A stretch of 15,603 nucleotides of DNA from a virus: UHGV virus genome UHGV-1832398; one strand, 5' to 3'. A program made the translations under genes and the position numbers. This document shows, piece after piece, positions 386 to 14,686 of the stretch. Under the pieces are notes generated by a model that was not told the DNA's origin, made no database searches, and worked only from the letters and a program-made list of their open reading frames with translations. Numbering within the stretch: position 1 is the first letter of the stretch; each line of letters opens with the position of its first letter.

Positions 386-1609
386 ATGGCGCTGTCTGAT
401 GCGTGGTTGCGTTCAGTCGTTGGAAAGGAACGTGATAAGGTTTTGGTTAAATCCGATCGTGATGGTCTGTCTGTCAGAGTATCACCGAAAGGTCGCGTAG
501 TGTTCCAATATCGTTATCAATGGGCAGGGAAAGGTGAGCGTCTTGATATCGGAACTTACCCGGCAACTGGATTAAAAGAGGCCAGAGAAGAAGTTATCCG
601 TCTCCGTGGTGAACTCGAGTCAAACCGTAATCCACGATTGGTCAAGCAGGCTGAAAAACGAAAAGCTACTGAAGCCATGACGGTAGAGTCTGTGATCCGT
701 GCCTGGTATGAAGCATATTGTGTAAAAAATAAAAAAGGTTCTGAACAGATACTCCGCTCGTTTGAGCTGCACCTGTTCTCTAAAATCGGGAATATCCCTC
801 ACGATGCAGCTACATTGCATGATTGGTTAGAAGTCTTGGAGCCTCTTAGCACTAAGACTCCAGCAATAGCAGACCGATTGCTAATTAACGCAAAGCAGGC
901 CCATGTCTGGGCGTATAAGAGAAAGCTCATTGAAACTCGCCCGCTGTCGGATATCACGGGTAAAGATATGGATATCCGTAAAGGTCAGAAGAAACGGTTT
1001 CTGACACATGATGAAATTAAAATCCTTTATTCTGCGATCGATGGTTCTCGAATGGTTCCTAAATACCGGGCCTTCATTAAACTACTGCTGCATTTTGGTT
1101 GCCGTAGTTCAGAGCTAATTACCGCCAGGGTGGACGATTTTGATTTCATTAATAAAGTATGGACTGTACCACCAGAACGACATAAGACTGGGGAGATAAC
1201 AGGCGAACCGCTAAAGCGGCCCATTATTGAACCGGTTGAAGAGCTTATAAAGTACGCTATCTCTATGAACAATGGTTCCGATATGCTTTTTACTAAGGAA
1301 GGAAGCAGGGAACCCGTTGGTCGAACATCATTGCAGTCGCTACCTTACAATTTAATGCAATACGCATGGCGGCGTTTTGGGTATCAATTCCCTCATTGGT
1401 CTCTTCATGATTTGAGACGGACAGCACGAACAAACTTTTCAGATCTTACTGCGCCTCATATCGCAGAAATAATGCTCGGTCATAAACTGCCAGGGGTATG
1501 GCAAGTTTATGACAAGAGCGATTATTTAGAAGAACAGCGTAAAGCTTACCAAAAATGGTGGGAGAGGATTGAGGCGATAGTTACTTGTACTTGTTCAGAC
1601 AGCAACTGA
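386..1609 (+). CDS. int: Tyrosine-type site-specific integrase (phage integrase)
   Basis: 407-aa ORF adjacent to the junction; C-terminal catalytic signature HDLRRTARTNF (H-x-x-R) and downstream Tyr (VYDKSDY); SD AGGTGA upstream. Confidence 0.9.
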   Translation: MALSDAWLRSVVGKERDKVLVKSDRDGLSVRVSPKGRVVFQYRYQWAGKGERLDIGTYPATGLKEAREEVIRLRGELESNRNPRLVKQAEKRKATEAMTVESVIRAWYEAYCVKNKKGSEQILRSFELHLFSKIGNIPHDAATLHDWLEVLEPLSTKTPAIADRLLINAKQAHVWAYKRKLIETRPLSDITGKDMDIRKGQKKRFLTHDEIKILYSAIDGSRMVPKYRAFIKLLLHFGCRSSELITARVDDFDFINKVWTVPPERHKTGEITGEPLKRPIIEPVEELIKYAISMNNGSDMLFTKEGSREPVGRTSLQSLPYNLMQYAWRRFGYQFPHWSLHDLRRTARTNFSDLTAPHIAEIMLGHKLPGVWQVYDKSDYLEEQRKAYQKWWERIEAIVTCTCSDSN

Positions 1610-1813: not shown

Positions 1814-3028
1814 ATGACTAAGCAAAAAAAACCTAGGAAAGTTCGGATAACAAAAGCTGAAAAAGAACGACGTGCAGAGTTTGATAAAAAGGAAATGAAT
1901 ATACGTGAGTATTTTTCAAATTTAAATAAACATGTGAACGATATTCGTAGTAAAGAGCGAGATTTTCATGGCCTTATCAGAGAACTGAATTACTTTCAAA
2001 AAAATATTGAATTTGAATACGAGAAAACGAGGGACATATCCCATCCAAGAGACTTAGGCAATGCTCGCGAAAATATACTAAAAGATTTTTTGAAATTAAG
2101 CGGTTTATTCCCAAGGCGTTATGCTGTGTCTTCAAGAAGCGTAAGAGTTGCTGCTGCTACAGGACATCTTAGCAACGAGATTGACATCGCATTATATGAT
2201 GCAGATGATGGATATGTGCTAATGCAGCGTAACGAAATATATGATGTTTACCCTTCTGAAAATGTATATGGAGTTATTCAAGTAAAATCAAAACTTACTA
2301 GGAAAGAATTAAGCAGTGCCATAAAAAATATTGCATCATATAAAAAACTACAAAGAAAAAAGAATGGCCATGGATTTTTTATAAATAACACATCATTCTC
2401 AGGGTTCGGAGTTGTTTTTGCATATGAAACAGAAATGCACTGGGATGATATAGTATCTGCTCTTAAGGAAGAAATCCAGAGTAATGAAACAAAATTACTA
2501 CCCAATGCAGTTTTCATATTAAATAAAGGCTATTTTTTATTTGGTAACAACAATGAATATCTGAGTTATAATTCAGATAGGATGATTAATGCAACTGACA
2601 TGATTGTACATGGCTTTCCTGATCGTGATGGTTGTTCCTTAGTTAACTTCCACAAGTTAATGATTACATTGTTGAATAATACTCAAAAAGGGAATGTAAA
2701 TATAAGTGATTATTATAGATTACCTTTAACTGCTGGAGATTATTCTTACGAATTTAATTTTGGTATGTTTAATGAGTTAATTAACTGTGAAGTACACGGT
2801 CCATATCATCGTTTATTCAAAGAGAAAGCTTTAAAAACATTAGTAAATTATTGTGTTAGCAATGAACAGATTAATATGGTTAAGTTAATCGACTTGGCTT
2901 TAGGTAAAACTCCAAATAATGAGGAAGCATACCAAAGACAACCATCGATGGTGACATTATATAACCCAGAAAATTTGCCACTACCTGAATTAATGTTTAG
3001 GGCGGTTCCGATGGTAAAGAATATATGA
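1814..3028 (+). CDS. Hypothetical 404-aa cargo protein; N-terminal region carries a restriction-endonuclease-like (Mrr/PD-(D/E)xK-type) signature, C-terminal ~220 aa unassigned
   Basis: Long ORF, markedly AT-rich relative to flanking phage genes. Motifs read from translation: GNARENILKDFLKLSG (aa 82-97), EIDIALYD (D124 at nt 2183-2185), VIQVKSK (Q156 at 2279-2281, K158 at 2285-2287). Followed by hairpin plus T-tract at 3168-3206. Confidence 0.6.
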   Translation: MTKQKKPRKVRITKAEKERRAEFDKKEMNIREYFSNLNKHVNDIRSKERDFHGLIRELNYFQKNIEFEYEKTRDISHPRDLGNARENILKDFLKLSGLFPRRYAVSSRSVRVAAATGHLSNEIDIALYDADDGYVLMQRNEIYDVYPSENVYGVIQVKSKLTRKELSSAIKNIASYKKLQRKKNGHGFFINNTSFSGFGVVFAYETEMHWDDIVSALKEEIQSNETKLLPNAVFILNKGYFLFGNNNEYLSYNSDRMINATDMIVHGFPDRDGCSLVNFHKLMITLLNNTQKGNVNISDYYRLPLTAGDYSYEFNFGMFNELINCEVHGPYHRLFKEKALKTLVNYCVSNEQINMVKLIDLALGKTPNNEEAYQRQPSMVTLYNPENLPLPELMFRAVPMVKNI

Positions 3029-3438: not shown

Positions 3439-3633
3439 TTACTCAATTACTCCAGCAAACCTGTATATCTTACGTGATGCCCATTTATTTGGGCAGGATT
3501 TAATATCAGGATCTGGAAAATCTTGTCTGTATTTCTGGCCAGTCCTCCTATTTACGCTGTTCCAGCGAAGCACCGTTGATATTGAAACGCCACAGAATTC
3601 GGCGACTTGTTTTGTTGTCATTAAGTTGTTCAT
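3439..3633 (-). CDS. AlpA/Xis-family small helix-turn-helix protein (candidate excisionase / prophage regulatory protein)
   Basis: 64 aa; N-terminal MNNLMTTKQVAEFCGVSISTVLRW matches the AlpA/excisionase HTH pattern (L-T-x-KQVAE-x-x-GVS-x-ST-x-x-RW); SD GGAGGGG upstream of the ATG at 3633. Confidence 0.7.
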   Translation of the reverse strand: MNNLMTTKQVAEFCGVSISTVLRWNSVNRRTGQKYRQDFPDPDIKSCPNKWASRKIYRFAGVIE

Positions 3634-3667: not shown

Positions 3668-4204
3668 TTATGCGCATGTGTGTAACTCCGATAACTCGTT
3701 AAAGCGCTCTATAAACATCCCGTAGGCATGGCCCGGTGCCAGTGGAATCACGTTGAACATCTCTGTTGCCGGGATGCCTTCCAGCACAGGCCAGAAAGAG
3801 CCATCATCAAGCCCGAGATCGCGGCGTTCGGTTGCCAGCATGATGAGATCGGCATATTTCACGGGCGTACTCATAACTGGGGGTAACCCGTATTTCTCAC
3901 GGATTACGGCGTCTATTTTTTCTTCCATCCGTTTATAGTCAGGAAGAAGGCGTTTCAGTGGTGCGGGGATGTCCTGGCAATATGCTTCTGTTGCATCATG
4001 CATTAACGCTTCAAAAACAAATTCCTGCGGTACCAGCTGGCTGCAAAGCACCGCATGTTGGGCGACGCTGTAGAAGTGTGAAAGATGCCCTGCAAAGCGA
4101 CAGATATTTGAAAGGGAAACCGCGATATCGTTAATCACGATATCGTCTTTATTTATCTTGTCATAATAAAAATGCTTCCCGGAAAAAGTTTTAATAAATG
4201 ACAT
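3668..4204 (-). CDS. yfdR: HD-domain 5'-deoxynucleotidase, YfdR-like (178 aa)
   Basis: HD-phosphohydrolase motif pattern (H...HD...D: FAGHLSHF, ALMHDATEAY); start at internal Met MSFIKTF supported by SD GGAG 8 nt upstream (the ORF track's longer start at 4234 lacks an SD); length matches CPS-53 YfdR from memory. Confidence 0.75.
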   Translation of the reverse strand: MSFIKTFSGKHFYYDKINKDDIVINDIAVSLSNICRFAGHLSHFYSVAQHAVLCSQLVPQEFVFEALMHDATEAYCQDIPAPLKRLLPDYKRMEEKIDAVIREKYGLPPVMSTPVKYADLIMLATERRDLGLDDGSFWPVLEGIPATEMFNVIPLAPGHAYGMFIERFNELSELHTCA

Positions 4205-4331
4205 TTTGTTCTCCACGTATATGTGCTGCACCACGCTGAATTCTGGTAAAAGGAAGCCCTCACCATCCGGCGATTATTGAGTTAATTACGTTTCCATAAA
4301 TGCCCCCGCAGGGGCATTTGCAGTAATGAAA

Positions 4332-5156
4332 TCAGGCGCTGAAAGTACCAATGAAGGTTTCTACTTTGCTGTCTTTGAATTTCTCAACAAGCAGATCACG
4401 AAATTCGTTAGCCATTTCTTCCTGCACCGCTTCCAGCTGAATAATGCGCAGAACCAGTACAGGACGATCGCCAGTGATAATGCTGAGGCGTAATTTAAAC
4501 GGACGTTCTTTCAGGCCTTCAAACGGAACGCATTTAAATTCAAATGCCACTGGCATAATATCTTTGGTTTTCGCTTCGACAGACTCCATCAGGGAGCGTT
4601 TGCCGCTGAAGTCATTATCTTCAAAATCAGCGGTCTGGTTTGCTTCAATCGTGATTTTACGGACAGCCGCAGCCGCTTTTGTTGCCTGAATAGCGTCACC
4701 ATTAGCATCAAAGCCCACAAGGTAGCCGGCCCAGTCTTCAATCCATTCTGCCAGTGACTTCTGGGAATGACGCTCGCCATTAACAGACAACAGAGCAGAG
4801 AACGGTGCTGTCTTTTTCAGTTTGAGAGTGGCGGTGTTATCTGCGTGACCTGGTTCATCAATAGTACCCAGGTTAAGCACACTGACGGCTCGCATATTAT
4901 CGGCATCGATAAAGCAGCGGGTGCCTTCATCTGCAAGATCTTTAGAATAACGGGTAAAGTCATCGATGCTGGCAGTGGAAAGCGCACCACGGAAACGGAA
5001 GCGATTTAAATTAAATTTTTCCAGATCATGAATGCGGAAATTCTCAGGCAATGCCACAGCATCGGCACCAATCTTACTGATAATTTCATTAACACCCTGA
5101 GCAGAAATAAGGGCATGGATTTGATTAATTGCGGTTGCGTCTAAGTTCTGAGACAT
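4332..5156 (-). CDS. yfdQ: YfdQ-like prophage protein (DUF2303-type, 274 aa)
   Basis: 274-aa ORF with SD GAGGA 7 nt upstream; length and synteny (between YfdP-like and YfdR-like) match the CPS-53 yfdP-yfdQ-yfdR arrangement as I recall it. Confidence 0.65.
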
Positions 5157-5221
5157 AATAAGTCCTCACTATATAAAGATATTCAGTGATGAGATAAATA
5201 ATCAGTTAATTAAAAACGATA

Positions 5222-5584
5222 TTAACGACCTGCTGCGCGGAGTTTTCCGTCAGGTTCACCGGCAAGAGTCAGTAACTGTCCCTGGTCTTCCTGCAGAATA
5301 GTCAGGCGACCACCGCGATTGACATACATCGGCGTTTCGGTGGTGTCTTCTTCGGAAATTTTCCCGCGGTTAGTCGGGCGAACATATGAGAGTTTGTGTT
5401 TGATTTTCACACGGTTCTCATCAAATGGTTCGATTTCCAGGTTGAGTGAGACCTTACCTTTGGTTTTCGTGTTCATCACACCGGAAGCGACTTCACTGAG
5501 AACTGCGCCGATTTTGGTTTCAAATACGCCGCCGTCCAGCTCCCCGATAAATGCCTGCACATCAGTACTGCGTTCGCTAGCCAT
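5222..5584 (-). CDS. yfdP: YfdP-like small prophage protein (120 aa); the ORF track's 226-aa version is an unsupported N-terminal extension
   Basis: Strong SD GAGGAG 7 nt upstream of the ATG at 5584 (MASERSTDV...); the upstream extension in the same frame is Arg/Cys/Pro/Trp-rich, typical of GC-rich non-coding read-through. Confidence 0.6.
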   Translation of the reverse strand: MASERSTDVQAFIGELDGGVFETKIGAVLSEVASGVMNTKTKGKVSLNLEIEPFDENRVKIKHKLSYVRPTNRGKISEEDTTETPMYVNRGGRLTILQEDQGQLLTLAGEPDGKLRAAGR

Positions 5585-5920
5585 TTTGCTGCTCCTCATC
5601 ATATCGACCCTGCAAGGCCGATTAGTTTCTCCACAAAACAGAGAAGAACACCTGCGGTGGCAGCCGCCCGGATGGATTGGGTTATGAGCCCGTCGTCCGG
5701 TGATGCTCTTCTCTGTTTTGTAAAAAGGACGGTACCAGCCGGAAGCAAGGGTACAAACTGGTACCGCCGGGACTACACACAGCATAAAGTTGTGGTGCCG
5801 GGTGCCTCCCGGTGCCTGGCGAAGGTTGCACACCAGACGGGTGGGTATCCACAGAAGGTCGACTGTCAGCCTCAACCTTAACCCGCGTGCGCTGAGCCGC
5901 ATTCACCACAACGCTAAGGA
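5585..5920. other. GC-rich, ORF-free, highly self-complementary segment in the leftward early transcript (candidate structured RNA element)
   Basis: 15-bp perfect inverted repeat 5633-5647 / 5707-5721; additional nested complementarities 5731-5738/5758-5765, 5789-5797/5904-5912, 5822-5828/5872-5878; overlapping ORFs in several frames (typical of non-coding GC-rich DNA), none with an RBS. Confidence 0.3.
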
Positions 5921-6021
5921 TTCTCTCTGGTTGAAAATACTTAGCTGTTATGTGCCTGTCTTTTCACCACTTCAGGCTCGGTGGGATCCTTTTAAGCCCG
6001 TATACATAAAAGGAAAATCAA

Positions 6022-6267
6022 ATGACTTTTGATGAAAAAGAACTTGATAATGCAATTAATAAAATCATCGTAACGTCGCTCTTTTCCTGTCTCAGCGACA
6101 CTCAGAAGAAACAGTTCTACGAATCGGTTTTCAACATGATCGAGCGTTGTTGTTTCTGCGATGCCGACGAGTTACCTGAAAAAATCAGGAAACAGTTGGC
6201 TGATGCTCTTCGAGTGCGACTTTCTGACCAATTTTCTGAAATGTGCTCTCCGAATTTGGACAAATAG
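6022..6267 (+). CDS. Hypothetical 81-aa protein
   Basis: ORF with SD AGGA 7 nt upstream; protein-like composition; overlaps the 3' end of the convergent minus-strand ORF by 83 nt. Confidence 0.45.
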   Translation: MTFDEKELDNAINKIIVTSLFSCLSDTQKKQFYESVFNMIERCCFCDADELPEKIRKQLADALRVRLSDQFSEMCSPNLDK

Positions 6268-6460
6268 AAAAAGGCCATTTCCATTCAGGGTCTGATGGAA
6301 ATACTTCAGCCTGTTCCAAAGCACGGCGTAAAGAGAACACAACTCCAGCCATAATCTGATGTTTCCCATTGGTCCAGCTATCGCCGCTCTGATCTACAGG
6401 GGCGGCTATGTCGTATGACCAAACGACTTCACAGTTATTGTTTAAAATCTGGACTTTCAT
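6185..6460 (-). CDS. Hypothetical 91-aa protein, first gene of the leftward (PL-type) early operon
   Basis: Start at internal Met (MKVQILNN...) with SD AGGTG about 6 nt upstream; the ORF track's longer 105-aa version starts at 6502. Confidence 0.45.
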   Translation of the reverse strand: MKVQILNNNCEVVWSYDIAAPVDQSGDSWTNGKHQIMAGVVFSLRRALEQAEVFPSDPEWKWPFSICPNSESTFQKIGQKVALEEHQPTVS

Positions 6461-6584
6461 TTCATACACCTGCTTTAACATGAGTGCCTGGTGGCACAAC
6501 ATGACTCAACGAATCATCCTGGACTTCATATGCCCCAGGCGGCTACTTCGTGGGCGTCCTGCCTGTTCGTTATCTTTGATATAA

Positions 6585-6613
6585 AATCTAACTTAACTTA
6601 GTTATTATGGCAA
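6585..6613 (-). promoter_or_regulatory. Candidate PL-type promoter (-35 TTGCCA, 17-bp spacer, -10 TAGATT on minus strand) overlapping CTTAG-type operator half-sites
   Basis: Direct reading of the reverse complement: -35 at 6613..6608, -10 at 6590..6585; motifs ACTTAGTT / CTTAGTT recur at 6596-6603, 6632-6640 and 6645-6653 and also in the cI-cro intergenic region. Confidence 0.35.
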
Positions 6614-6666
6614 GAGAAAACACCAAACTTTTCTTAGTTCGGTGCCTTAGTTAGAGAAGAGAGGTC

Positions 6667-7293
6667 TTAGAGTTCGTATTGAACTCCTTTGACTACACCA
6701 ATGATAAGGCAATTACCATTGATAGGGATGTTGGGATACCGAGGATTTAATGGCACTAAAAACTTTTGAGGGCCATCGATGACTAATTTTTTTACTGTAG
6801 CTTCGTTTGTTCCATCAAGTCGAGCGATGACTATTTTTCCATGACGAGGTTCTGCATCTGGATCTACAATCACTGTTGCGCCTTCTGGTATTGTTGGGAG
6901 GCCATTAGGGTTAGTCATGGAGTCACCTTTAACCTCTAATGCAAATGAGTTATCACCAATCTTTAATGATGTATCTACCCACTTGTCCACTTCACTAAAC
7001 ACTTCTGCTGCCCTGCACTCAGTAAACTGCCCAGCCTGAACCCACGATATTACAGGAACTCTGCGCATGTTTGTGACGAGTTTGCCTTCAAACTCAGCAC
7101 CATAAAGAATGTAATCTATTGACGTATTGAAGAACTTCGCTAATTTCGAAAGTGCCTCCCCACCAGGGGTATTGATGTCTTTCTCCCAGTACCCCACAGC
7201 AACGTCGCTTACTCCACAAAATTTACCCAATTCTTTCTGGGACGTTCCGGTAACTCTTCTCAGAGCTTTTATACGCTGACCAACCGTTTCCAT
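6667..7293 (-). CDS. cI: CI-type prophage repressor with N-terminal HTH and C-terminal LexA-like S24 autopeptidase domain
   Basis: HTH region (QKELGKFCGVSDVAVGYWEKD); Ala-Gly cleavage site (WVQAGQF); Ser/Lys dyad motifs (GDSM ... VKKL). Confidence 0.9.
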   Translation of the reverse strand: METVGQRIKALRRVTGTSQKELGKFCGVSDVAVGYWEKDINTPGGEALSKLAKFFNTSIDYILYGAEFEGKLVTNMRRVPVISWVQAGQFTECRAAEVFSEVDKWVDTSLKIGDNSFALEVKGDSMTNPNGLPTIPEGATVIVDPDAEPRHGKIVIARLDGTNEATVKKLVIDGPQKFLVPLNPRYPNIPINGNCLIIGVVKGVQYEL

Positions 7294-7390
7294 AGGAGCA
7301 CCATTTCTTGAATTGCTAAGTAATCTTAGTTTTTATTGACCAAAGATAGATTTGTAATTAGCATCTAATAAAACTTAGTTTGGAGGGCGT
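7294..7390. promoter_or_regulatory. cI-cro intergenic control region (OR); candidate PR -35 TTGACC (7336-7341), -10 TAGCAT (7359-7364); palindromes CTAAG-TAAT-CTTAG (7316-7329) and ATTAG-CAT-CTAAT (7357-7369)
   Basis: Divergent cI/cro arrangement plus direct reading of promoter hexamers and palindromic operator-like sites. Confidence 0.5.
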
Positions 7391-7591
7391 ATGACAACTG
7401 ACGATATCGAAAGCTACTTCGGCAGTATTGAGAAAGTTGCTGCTTTTTTCGGCATAACAACTGAAGCCGTTTATCAGTGGCGAAACCGTCCGGGCCAGTT
7501 AATTCCAAAAGGACGTGCAGCAGAAGCTGCATATAGAACTTGCGGACGGTTGCCATTTAAACCTGAGCTTTATGAAAAATCTAATGGATAA
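7391..7591 (+). CDS. cro: Cro-like small HTH regulator
   Basis: 66-aa ORF divergent from cI with SD GGAGGG; HTH-like segment (VAAFFGITTEAVYQWRNR). Confidence 0.7.
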   Translation: MTTDDIESYFGSIEKVAAFFGITTEAVYQWRNRPGQLIPKGRAAEAAYRTCGRLPFKPELYEKSNG

Positions 7592-8180
7592 ATCGATTAA
7601 CAGAAACCACAGAACGATGAGGCTAACCGTGGGTAAGCATCACTGGAAAGTAGAAAAACAGCCTGAGTGGTACGTGAAAGCTGTCAGAAAAACTATCGCA
7701 GCGTTGCCGGGTGGTTACGCTGAAGCAGCTGACTGGCTGGATGTAACAGAAAACGCATTATTTAACCGCCTTCGTGCCGATGGCGATCAGATTTTCCCGC
7801 TGGGATGGGCAATGATTTTGCAACGTGCTGGTGGAACTCACTTCATTGCTGACGCTGTGGCGCAGTCTGCAAATGGCGTCTTTGTGTCTCTTCCTGACGT
7901 CGAGGATGTGGACAACGCCGATATTAACCAGCGCCTGCTGGAAGTCATTGAACAGATTGGCAGTTATTCCAGACAGATTCGTTCGGCAATCGAAGACGGT
8001 GTGGTGGAACCGCATGAGAAGACAGCAATTAACGACGAGCTGTATCTCTCAATTTCGAAGCTGCAGGAGCATGCAGCACTGGTCTACAAAATCTTTTGCA
8101 TTTCAGAAAGTAATGACGCCCGCGAGTGTGCAGCTCCGGGCGCCGTGGCGTGTCGTGACTGTGGAGAAACTAACGCATGA
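7584..8180 (+). CDS. CII-like regulatory protein (possibly phage 186 CII/CP76-type); start uncertain
   Basis: Position immediately after cro; the ORF track's start at 7515 overlaps cro, so the ATG at 7584 (overlapping the cro stop) is preferred but has no good SD; family assignment from recalled similarity only. Confidence 0.5.
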
Positions 8181-13889: not shown

Positions 13890-14189
13890 AAAAATTCCTT
13901 AATACTGATAACTGGGCGCACTATACACACGTTCCTGAAGAAAGCTATAGTTTTTTGATGGGGGTGAAGATGGCTGGATGTCTAAAATAAACATTGCTTC
14001 ATATGTTCAACTATGCGTTAATGATTGCGTCGGTTTGAAGAACAGACGATATACGAAGTAGTTTACTAAAGCAGTTCTCATTTCAGGTGTTATTCACTTA
14101 TTCCTTCTTTGAGTCTCTCCAATTAAGTACGAAGTCGTTTCTGTTATACAAGCCATTTATGCCGAAAGGCTCAAGTTAAGGAATGTAGA

Positions 14190-14405
14190 ATGTCAAATAA
14201 AATGACTGGTTTAGTAAAATGGTTTAACGCTGATAAAGGTTTCGGCTTTATTTCTCCTGTTGATGGTAGTAAAGATGTGTTTGTGCATTTTTCTGCGATT
14301 CAGAATGATAATTTTCGAACCTTATTTGAAGGTCAAAAGGTTACCTTCTCTGTAGAGAGTGGTGCTAAAGGTCCTGCAGCAGCAAATGTCATAATTACTG
14401 ATTAA
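14190..14405 (+). CDS. cspB: CspB/CspA-family cold-shock protein
   Basis: 71 aa; [19 protein letters not shown] ... VFVHFSAI (RNP1/RNP2 motifs); conserved 5'-UTR 'upstream box' GCCGAAAGGC at 14161-14170 as in cspA-family leaders. Confidence 0.85.
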
Positions 14406-14686
14406 AATTCATAGTTTGTCTGTATACGATAACGAAGAAGGCTGATGCCTGAGTGGAGATACAGACAGAGTGGTGAATATTGGATCTCTTTAATAAATAG
14501 TAAGGAGGTCCAATACATGAAACAATGGCCAGCATATTTGGCAATAACTTAATCAGGAAAAGTATGCTAACCATTGTGGTGAAGTGCAGGTTTGCTGCAT
14601 GAATAGTTTTACAGCAGAAGCTAACTGCTGGCATAGCAAAACAAAGTGCGTAAGTGGATGACTCCCACAAAAAGTACCACAATATT

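Follow-up and report, generated by a model that had tools for sequence, protein, structure and literature searches.

We have analysed two small convergent genes, termed A and B, in UHGV virus genome UHGV-1832398, a stretch of 15,603 nucleotides (nt) which is referred to below as the window and which is a lambdoid prophage of Escherichia coli (E. coli) of the SfV/CPS-53 type. Our favoured reading, to which we assign a probability of about 0.55, is that A and B form a functionally linked cassette of ~0.53 kb in a variable accessory slot next to the leftward promoter (PL) of SfV/Rac-type lambdoid prophages, where they would work as a convergent excludon. The two are convergent neighbours in conserved synteny, with 433-439 nt between their starts and an 83-nt overlap of their open reading frames (ORFs), and a scan of 6022-6460 found no terminator-like site on either strand. 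Since no terminator separates A from B, and since transcription from PL has to pass through A on its way to yfdP/Q/R, xis and int, transcripts of the opposite strands would overlap, which is what defines a convergent excludon. In kind the arrangement is already known: it would class as a convergent excludon or moron cassette of a lambdoid early operon.

The cassette occurs in about one of ten complete E. coli genomes (551 of 5426 contain part or all of 5990-6500). The place held by B is the most strategic one in a prophage, its product being the first to appear once the repressor is lost, and the PL-adjacent slot houses exclusion and host-protection genes (rex, sieB), which makes A-B a good candidate for a lysogen-phase factor with an early counterpart. 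With both genes real, the public annotation, which drops one of the two, is corrected.

Both genes are real and inherited together

The preliminary description of this DNA, made from its letters alone, reported ORFs of 81 and 91 amino acids (aa), each with a Shine-Dalgarno (SD) sequence, that converge and overlap by 83 nt. Both are found where it placed them (Table 1), with AAGGA 7 nt 5' of the ATG of A and AGGTG 6 nt upstream of the ATG of B at 6460. The mechanical ORF of B extends from 6185 to 6502; ATG 6460 is its conserved start, as supported by the homologues, all of which begin with MKVQ, and a mosaic junction of phages 720R4 and SKA5 lies close to it, at 6462. ORF length alone is no proof of a gene, because the window holds 97 ORFs of at least 40 aa and such ORFs are frequent by chance; the reality of A and B rests on comparison.

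Over region 5900-6570 identity is 98.8% with phage SfV and 98.6% with vB_EcoM-720R4 and SKA5; isolated phages carry the module as well. A and B match their PHROG families over the full length (PHROG 3311 for A, 3.5e-54, 81 of 81 positions; PHROG 3195 for B, 8.2e-70, 98 of 98 positions); these are separate entries, both of 'unknown function', that give no hint of a pairing.

Protein searches with B returned homologues of 61-68% identity (P0012-P0015), and the first search with A near-identical sequences only. The contigs with divergent B proteins were all Rac-like or lambdoid prophages with B always the first gene past the repressor, and tblastn detected an A homologue (60-61% identity over 75-81 aa) opposite every divergent B examined. 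Conversely, a profile search for A gave annotated homologues in Salmonella, Klebsiella and Yersinia, and each of these loci held an uncalled B of 49-65% identity. Where quantified, identity to the window proteins ranges over 49-68% for B and 46-61% for A (Salmonella, Klebsiella, Yersinia and metagenomes). An exhaustive profile search among 1.84 billion representative proteins produced only 19 relatives of B, the most distant of which match the profile over positions 1-65 only; the distant lineages from this search keep the pair, the A of one of them (L026) being 46% identical to that of the window, and the A partners in three further divergent lineages, of lower, unquantified identity, were recognised by eye. 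No homologue keeping only one of the two frames was present among the lineages examined. From the ATG of B to that of A, 11 lineages have a distance of exactly 439 nt and the two most divergent ones 436 and 433 nt; nine lineages align over the module free of gaps.

The preliminary description had allowed that one of the two ORFs is spurious. A non-coding artefact would agree with the public records, each of which calls one ORF only (SfV and PGAP call B, the 720R4 record calls A, and PGAP annotates an A-derived ORF solely where B is deleted), and with the absence of a known domain in A and B. It is hardly credible in view of the conservation and codon-substitution analysis that the same description had proposed, and which was run here on related prophages. 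In five lineages compared by the Nei-Gojobori method, the ratio of nonsynonymous to synonymous differences (pN/pS) was 0.28 for the A frame in the A-only part and 0.33 for the B frame in the B-only part, each with 0 stops; the remaining frames of these parts carry 8-39 stops and their pN/pS is not informative. Start codons and SD sequences of both genes are conserved across lineages, and A and B are both intact in 64 of the 66 IMG/VR contigs with the E. coli-type module. Polymorphism within E. coli was too sparse to strengthen the selection test. With purifying selection on both frames and no single-frame homologues, the idea of a spurious ORF was rejected; as judged by comparison, A and B are two real, co-inherited genes.

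Only the frame of A is constrained in the overlap

Amino acid identity among B proteins is 0.69 over residues 1-64, and codon periodicity follows the B frame in columns 1-192 of the module alignment (position 2, 0.86; position 3, 0.59). Past about column 192 conservation tracks the A frame, the overlap included (A position 2, 0.81; A position 3, 0.63). Within the overlap, identity is 0.48 for the B tail versus 0.65 for the C-terminus of A, and pN/pS amounts to 1.07 in the B frame and 0.59 in the A frame, pS itself being lower there (0.23-0.34) than elsewhere (0.59-0.68). The conserved core of B abuts the stop codon of A, and B varies in length by lineage (91, 93, 108, 122 and 126 aa). By these measures only the A frame is constrained inside the overlap, and the last ~25 residues of B are passive read-on. 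With constraint confined to A, the coding overlap is probably incidental packing and not dual coding, and any coupling would act on the transcripts. We also considered the 122-aa B as a sign of a longer functional overlap and rejected it: recoding A synonymously leaves the extension open in 75-100% of cases in the seven lineages with an open frame, and it is uninformative because its openness follows from the protein sequence of A.

The constraint on A alone in the overlap and the lineage-dependent stop of B, together with the tight tail-to-tail packing that is common for other cargo of the early-left operon, would suit two independent accessory genes brought tail to tail by chance, with an overlap and antisense arrangement of no regulatory role. 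We find this improbable. In such a highly mosaic region independent genes should come apart, yet each B examined has its A and vice versa, at 433-439 nt, in four genera; moreover, antisense transcription of A is unavoidable, because the PL transcript has to pass through it before yfdP/Q/R, xis and the remaining operon genes.

The PL-adjacent slot is variable

While the A-B pair is kept in its PL-operon slot across four genera, with differing immunity and flanking modules, sister phages hold other genes there. Between the same flanks SfII has an unrelated convergent pair of genes, for 68 aa and 63 aa, that overlap by 39 nt, and 689R6 another one (68 aa and 144 aa, 29-nt overlap), the 144-aa ORF of which is also annotated in the SfIV record. 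The slot of PhiR29 holds one gene directed against PL (anti-PL) alone, that of mEp460 one helix-turn-helix (HTH) gene in the PL sense alone, and that of Rac ydaG and ydaF facing sieB with a 4-nt overlap. Convergence with a 3' overlap, of 4-83 nt, recurs in other cassettes of the slot.

In SfII (L003, 2543-2590) the first ~16 codons of B (MKVQILNNNCEVVW) are retained and are followed by a stop and then by the unrelated cassette. A junction inside the 5' end of B shows that cassettes are exchanged through recombination within the conserved sequence of the PL leader and the start of B. Two apparent relatives were discarded. The 45% identity over 84 aa that tblastn gave for an SfII 'homologue' of B is an artefact of these ~16 shared codons, the alignment crossing the stop into an unrelated ORF, and ydaG/ydaF of Rac, considered as a split B, have no similarity to it.

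In some lineages a B-like domain is fused behind an N-terminal domain of ~80 aa that starts with MEFKDLP (L026, 3001-3579; P0064, P0065). A similar small domain (MKFQDLP...) makes up a separate 66-aa PL-sense gene in another locus (L012, 3572-3772), where it faces a GhoS-like anti-PL gene.

The candidate PL, its hairpin and the position of lambda N

The candidate PL is sigma70-like, and the two leftward operators (OL), CTAACTTAACTTAG and CAAACTTTTCTTAG, overlap or flank it. They have the form CTAA-N6-TTAG, copies of which lie between cI and cro as rightward operators (OR) at 7316-7329 and 7365-7378. Promoter and shared operators bear out the PL-proximal placement given in the preliminary description, and equally its statement that A opposes the PL-type transcript: A is on the + strand, PL on the - strand, and PL must cross A on the way from B to yfdP-int. 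On this promoter assignment, the early-left operon has B as its first ORF.

Between PL and B lies an imperfect hairpin of ~62 nt, which is 83-95% identical in many otherwise unrelated phages (ST64B, phiNP, YeP1-3, AH07) and whose inner stem shows compensatory changes (CCTGG/CCAGG, CCCGG/CCGGG, CCGGTG/CACCGG). It was flagged as terminator-like on the + strand, with a T-rich tail at 6570-6579, and in Yersinia it stands at the far side of the A-B cassette. The PL leader taken as a whole fold is not unusually stable (z = -0.49), and the hairpin matched no Rfam family. It could be an RNA element of the PL leader, or a + strand terminator for A and other anti-PL transcripts.

The preliminary description had pointed out that B occupies the position where lambda encodes N, which stands as far as position goes. 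As in the PL operon of lambda, an operator-controlled leftward promoter lies beside a cI-type gene and transcription reaches B before any other gene; the PL transcript contains conserved structured RNA elements, and the immunity and early-left genes that were scanned include no recognisable N homologue. These features would fit B as a functional analogue of N, an antiterminator made first from PL. The protein, however, is not N-like: it is acidic, its N-terminus (MKVQILNNNCEVVWSYDIAA) has 1 basic residue in the first 20, an arginine-rich motif of the lambda N type is missing from it, and no Pfam family was matched at E<=0.1. Sister phages with the same flanks have unrelated cassettes, or none of the A-B type, in the slot, so B is unlikely to be essential for early-left expression and appears dispensable at the family level; B also differs from lambda N in having an anti-PL gene right behind it. 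We regard an N analogue as most implausible.

A structured leader precedes A and other anti-PL genes

A is preceded by ~70 nt that are better conserved than coding sequence and have a sharp left edge at GCCTG (5954), as against ~20 nt conserved upstream of B, which cover only its SD region. RNAalifold, run on a MAFFT alignment of the leader, recovered helix P2 alone; P1 and P3 were missed because they are out of register in the alignment, and the helices were then parsed by hand. P1 and P2 are mutually exclusive, and in P3 UCCUUUUA pairs with UAAAAGGA, which contains the SD sequence of A. All arm pairs (counts in Table 1) are Watson-Crick, save 3 G.U pairs on the anti-PL strand and 2 terminal mismatches, and P3 is present in the minimum-energy folds of 13 of 14 leader copies. 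P3 is thus predicted to sequester the ribosome-binding site of A. No Rfam family corresponds to this leader.

The full leader also stands 5' of other anti-PL genes, namely SfII_36, the GhoS-like protein (Pfam 24.2 bits, cut-off 21), a protein with two transmembrane (TM) segments and several small proteins; sieB of Rac is preceded by the P1/P2 part only, a clear P3 being missing. A survey of IMG/VR, for which one narrow sequence variant served as query, matched at least 120 contigs. In 119 of the 123 leader copies on them an SD sequence and an ORF start follow 31-35 nt past GGTATC. The cargo belongs to at least 12 unrelated families, of which A is the commonest with 67 copies, and most cargo genes lie opposite a PL-sense ORF, the two overlapping by 4-225 nt at their 3' ends.

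A-B could tentatively be taken as the commonest example of an unrecognised class, a proposal which we would place well short of even odds. In it, anti-PL cargo would follow a shared SD-sequestering leader (P1/P2/P3) and lie tail to tail with a small PL-sense partner, and the cargo transcript would run antisense over the partner to end at the PL hairpin, giving a toggle between lysogeny and lysis, for instance of an exclusion or host-protection factor and an early antidote. If this were true, the leader would serve prophage accessory genes, sieB included, as a portable platform for expression, and, if confirmed as RNA, it would offer a simple handle for prophage genes expressed in lysogens.

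A-B as a convergent excludon

Under the excludon reading, PL would be repressed in a lysogen, and A would be transcribed and translated at a level set by the leader; its transcript would run antisense across B, perhaps up to the hairpin next to PL. On induction or infection PL would fire and B would be made first. The PL polymerase and transcript would then cross the whole of A and its leader antisense and turn A off in cis, via transcriptional interference and duplex RNA. Expression of A in the lysogen and of B on induction is most likely. Accessory genes expressed in lysogens are known from lambda (rexAB, sieB), and sieB of P22 has an in-frame antidote, Esc; one possibility, after the SieB/Esc logic, is that A is a lysogen-phase factor and B its early-phase partner or antagonist. 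Always inherited together, A and B probably serve one and the same process, each in the opposite phase.

A-B shares with such morons and lysogen genes that a small accessory gene, equipped with expression signals of its own, sits in an early operon and can be exchanged between mosaic relatives. In contrast to SieB/Esc, the partner is a separate convergent gene and not an internal start, and lysogen expression of A is predicted.

The nearest parallel is Rac, where the same slot after a repressor-controlled leftward promoter holds PL-sense ORFs (ydaF and ydaG) tail to tail with anti-PL sieB, behind the P1/P2 part of the leader. There, overlapping transcription was measured: sieB-ydaF figures among the convergent excludons derived from RNA-seq, in at least 50% of 58 MG1655 transcriptomes (PMC12288877). 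The overlap is 4 nt in Rac versus 83 nt here, the sieB leader is without a clear P3, and the proteins are unlike in sequence, A differing from SieB and B from YdaG and YdaF; SieB is a 162-aa membrane protein, A a soluble helical protein of 81 aa. Literature searches on orf33, KilS and sieB transcription turned up nothing specific to the A-B locus.

The preliminary description had offered an antisense-coupled pair as the alternative to a spurious ORF. Strict co-inheritance, rigid geometry, the lack of a terminator and the sieB-ydaF parallel speak for the coupling; the coding overlap that had drawn attention to it is itself probably incidental.

Several points weigh against the excludon reading. 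No convincing sigma70 promoter was found 5' of the leader, 17 copies having no consistent hexamers there, and the sole internal candidate, TTTTCA-18-TGnTATCCT (GATCCT in the window) with an extended -10, would leave P3 out of the RNA. P1-P3 are nearly strand-symmetric, so that only the 3 G.U pairs and the part that the SD sequence takes in P3 favour the anti-PL strand. The opposite-phase expression of A and B is a prediction for this locus, the process or interaction that they probably share is suggested by co-inheritance only, and the annotators of SfV, PGAP and 720R4 each recognised a single gene of the pair.

Protein features and the toxin-antitoxin alternative

The AlphaFold2 model of A is a three-helix bundle (helices 5-22, 26-46 and 53-75) with a predicted local distance difference test (pLDDT) score of 78; that of B is unreliable (pLDDT 46). 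The A model had no match at E<=0.001 in PDB or BFVD, and sequence-profile searches of PDB gave nothing meaningful. The maximum Kyte-Doolittle hydropathy over 19 residues is 0.80 for A and 0.89 for B, which excludes a TM segment in either. A does not match SieB (Pfam PF14163, a membrane protein) and has no TM segment, so that only slot, orientation and the P1/P2 part of the leader are shared. A scored 15.3 bits with the anti-sigma factor RsrA (cut-off 62.5), a weak hit that we discounted since the zinc-motif His lacks conservation; the CCxC motif of A is invariant in the nine closest lineages, but of the five more divergent ones four lack it or have an altered form.

The preliminary description had also mentioned an addiction-like module, for which we found no positive support. 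In a toxin-antitoxin (TA) module one product would be harmful, e.g. B made from a leaky PL, and the other product or an antisense transcript would neutralise it, so that the prophage is stabilised. Two small genes that are strictly co-inherited would be expected of such a module, and a sister cassette with the same leader encodes the GhoS-like protein, a member of an antitoxin family. The convergent layout with 3' overlap recalls type I loci of Bacillus subtilis such as txpA/RatA and bsrG/SR4, in which convergent transcripts overlap at their 3' ends, and a 5' leader that occludes the ribosome-binding site, as predicted for A, is a further shared trait. In type I systems, however, the toxin is small and hydrophobic, whereas both A and B are conserved protein-coding genes with soluble, acidic products free of TM segments. 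Nor do they resemble a type II module, as the genes are convergent and no HTH, ribbon-helix-helix, AbrB or toxin domain was present in A or B; Pfam, NCBIfam and PADLOC gave no toxin, antitoxin or defence family match for either. Natural variants argue in the same direction. In E. coli strain 131 (L006, 745-1958) an element of the insertion sequence family IS3 interrupts A after about codon 24, with B, PL and repressor intact, which amounts to a natural A knockout in a lysogen; remnants with B deleted and A truncated exist, and frameshifted variants of A and B are frequent in databases. In a lysogen, cI would repress B in any case. Altogether we consider a TA module unlikely.

Other features of the window

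Coordinates of the features discussed, and of the neighbouring genes, are collected in Table 1.

Table 1. Coordinates of features in the 15,603-nt window
Feature	Position	Strand	Basis or remarks
Gene A	6022-6267	+	81 aa; acidic, isoelectric point (pI) 4.7; soluble; against the PL operon; PHROG 3311; SD AAGGA 6010-6014
Gene B	6185-6460	-	91 aa; acidic, pI 4.95; soluble; PHROG 3195; SfV orf33; PGAP WP_021563905.1
Overlap (83 nt) of A C-terminus and stop with B residues ~65-91	6185-6267	both	codon periodicity, pN/pS
Conserved core of B, residues 1-~66 (MKVQ...WKWPFS)	6263-6460	-	identity and periodicity
Leader of A	5954-6021	+	conservation exceeding coding sequence; covariation
Leader helix P1	5954-5958/5973-5977	+	5 distinct arm pairs
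Leader helix P2	5966-5970/5981-5985	+	9 distinct arm pairs
Leader helix P3	5987-5994/6007-6014	+	10 distinct arm pairs
Candidate PL, TTGCCA (6613-6608) -17- TAGATT (6590-6585)	6585-6613	-	promoter scan; predicted start near 6578
OL operators (6588-6601 and 6624-6637)	6588-6637	both	motif match to OR
Imperfect hairpin (~62 nt) between PL and B	6508-6571	either, as strand of action	conservation and compensatory changes
Integrase	386-1609	+	
DUF6602/NucC-like nuclease gene	1814-3028	+	
HTH (excisionase-like) protein	3439-3633	-	
yfdR, yfdQ, yfdP	3668-5584	-	
LexA-like cI-type repressor (HTH_3 and Peptidase_S24)	6667-7293	-	Pfam and annotation in relatives; defines the immunity region
cro	7391-7591	+	
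CII/YmfL-like gene (ORF), then replication genes	7515-8180	+	

The 226-aa mechanical ORF at 5222-5902 (-) is not a single gene: YfdP is confined to the C-terminal ~120 aa (the match to PHROG 204 begins at residue 101), and the GC-rich upstream part of the ORF coincides with an STnc100-like element and with a pseudogene that PGAP annotates as 'frameshifted hypothetical' in relatives. This element, located between the A leader and yfdP (5719-5942, -), is a full-length but sub-threshold Rfam match to STnc100 (41.6 bits, gathering score 47, E = 3e-7). Its 3' half resembles, by eye, the annotated Rac small RNA (sRNA) KilS, and STnc100 has been linked to PasD prophage sRNAs (2026 preprint).

Adjoining the integrase, the 404-aa protein encoded at 1814-3028 has a DUF6602 domain and PADLOC matches to nuclease effectors of the PD-DExK/NucC type (E = 2e-24 to 1.5e-16); its gene is a candidate for a defence function carried by the prophage close to the attachment site. 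In the late or accessory region of the prophage, positions 14029-14468 (+) match the Rfam cspA thermoregulator over threshold (158 bits) and correspond to a cold-shock-protein gene with its 5' untranslated region.

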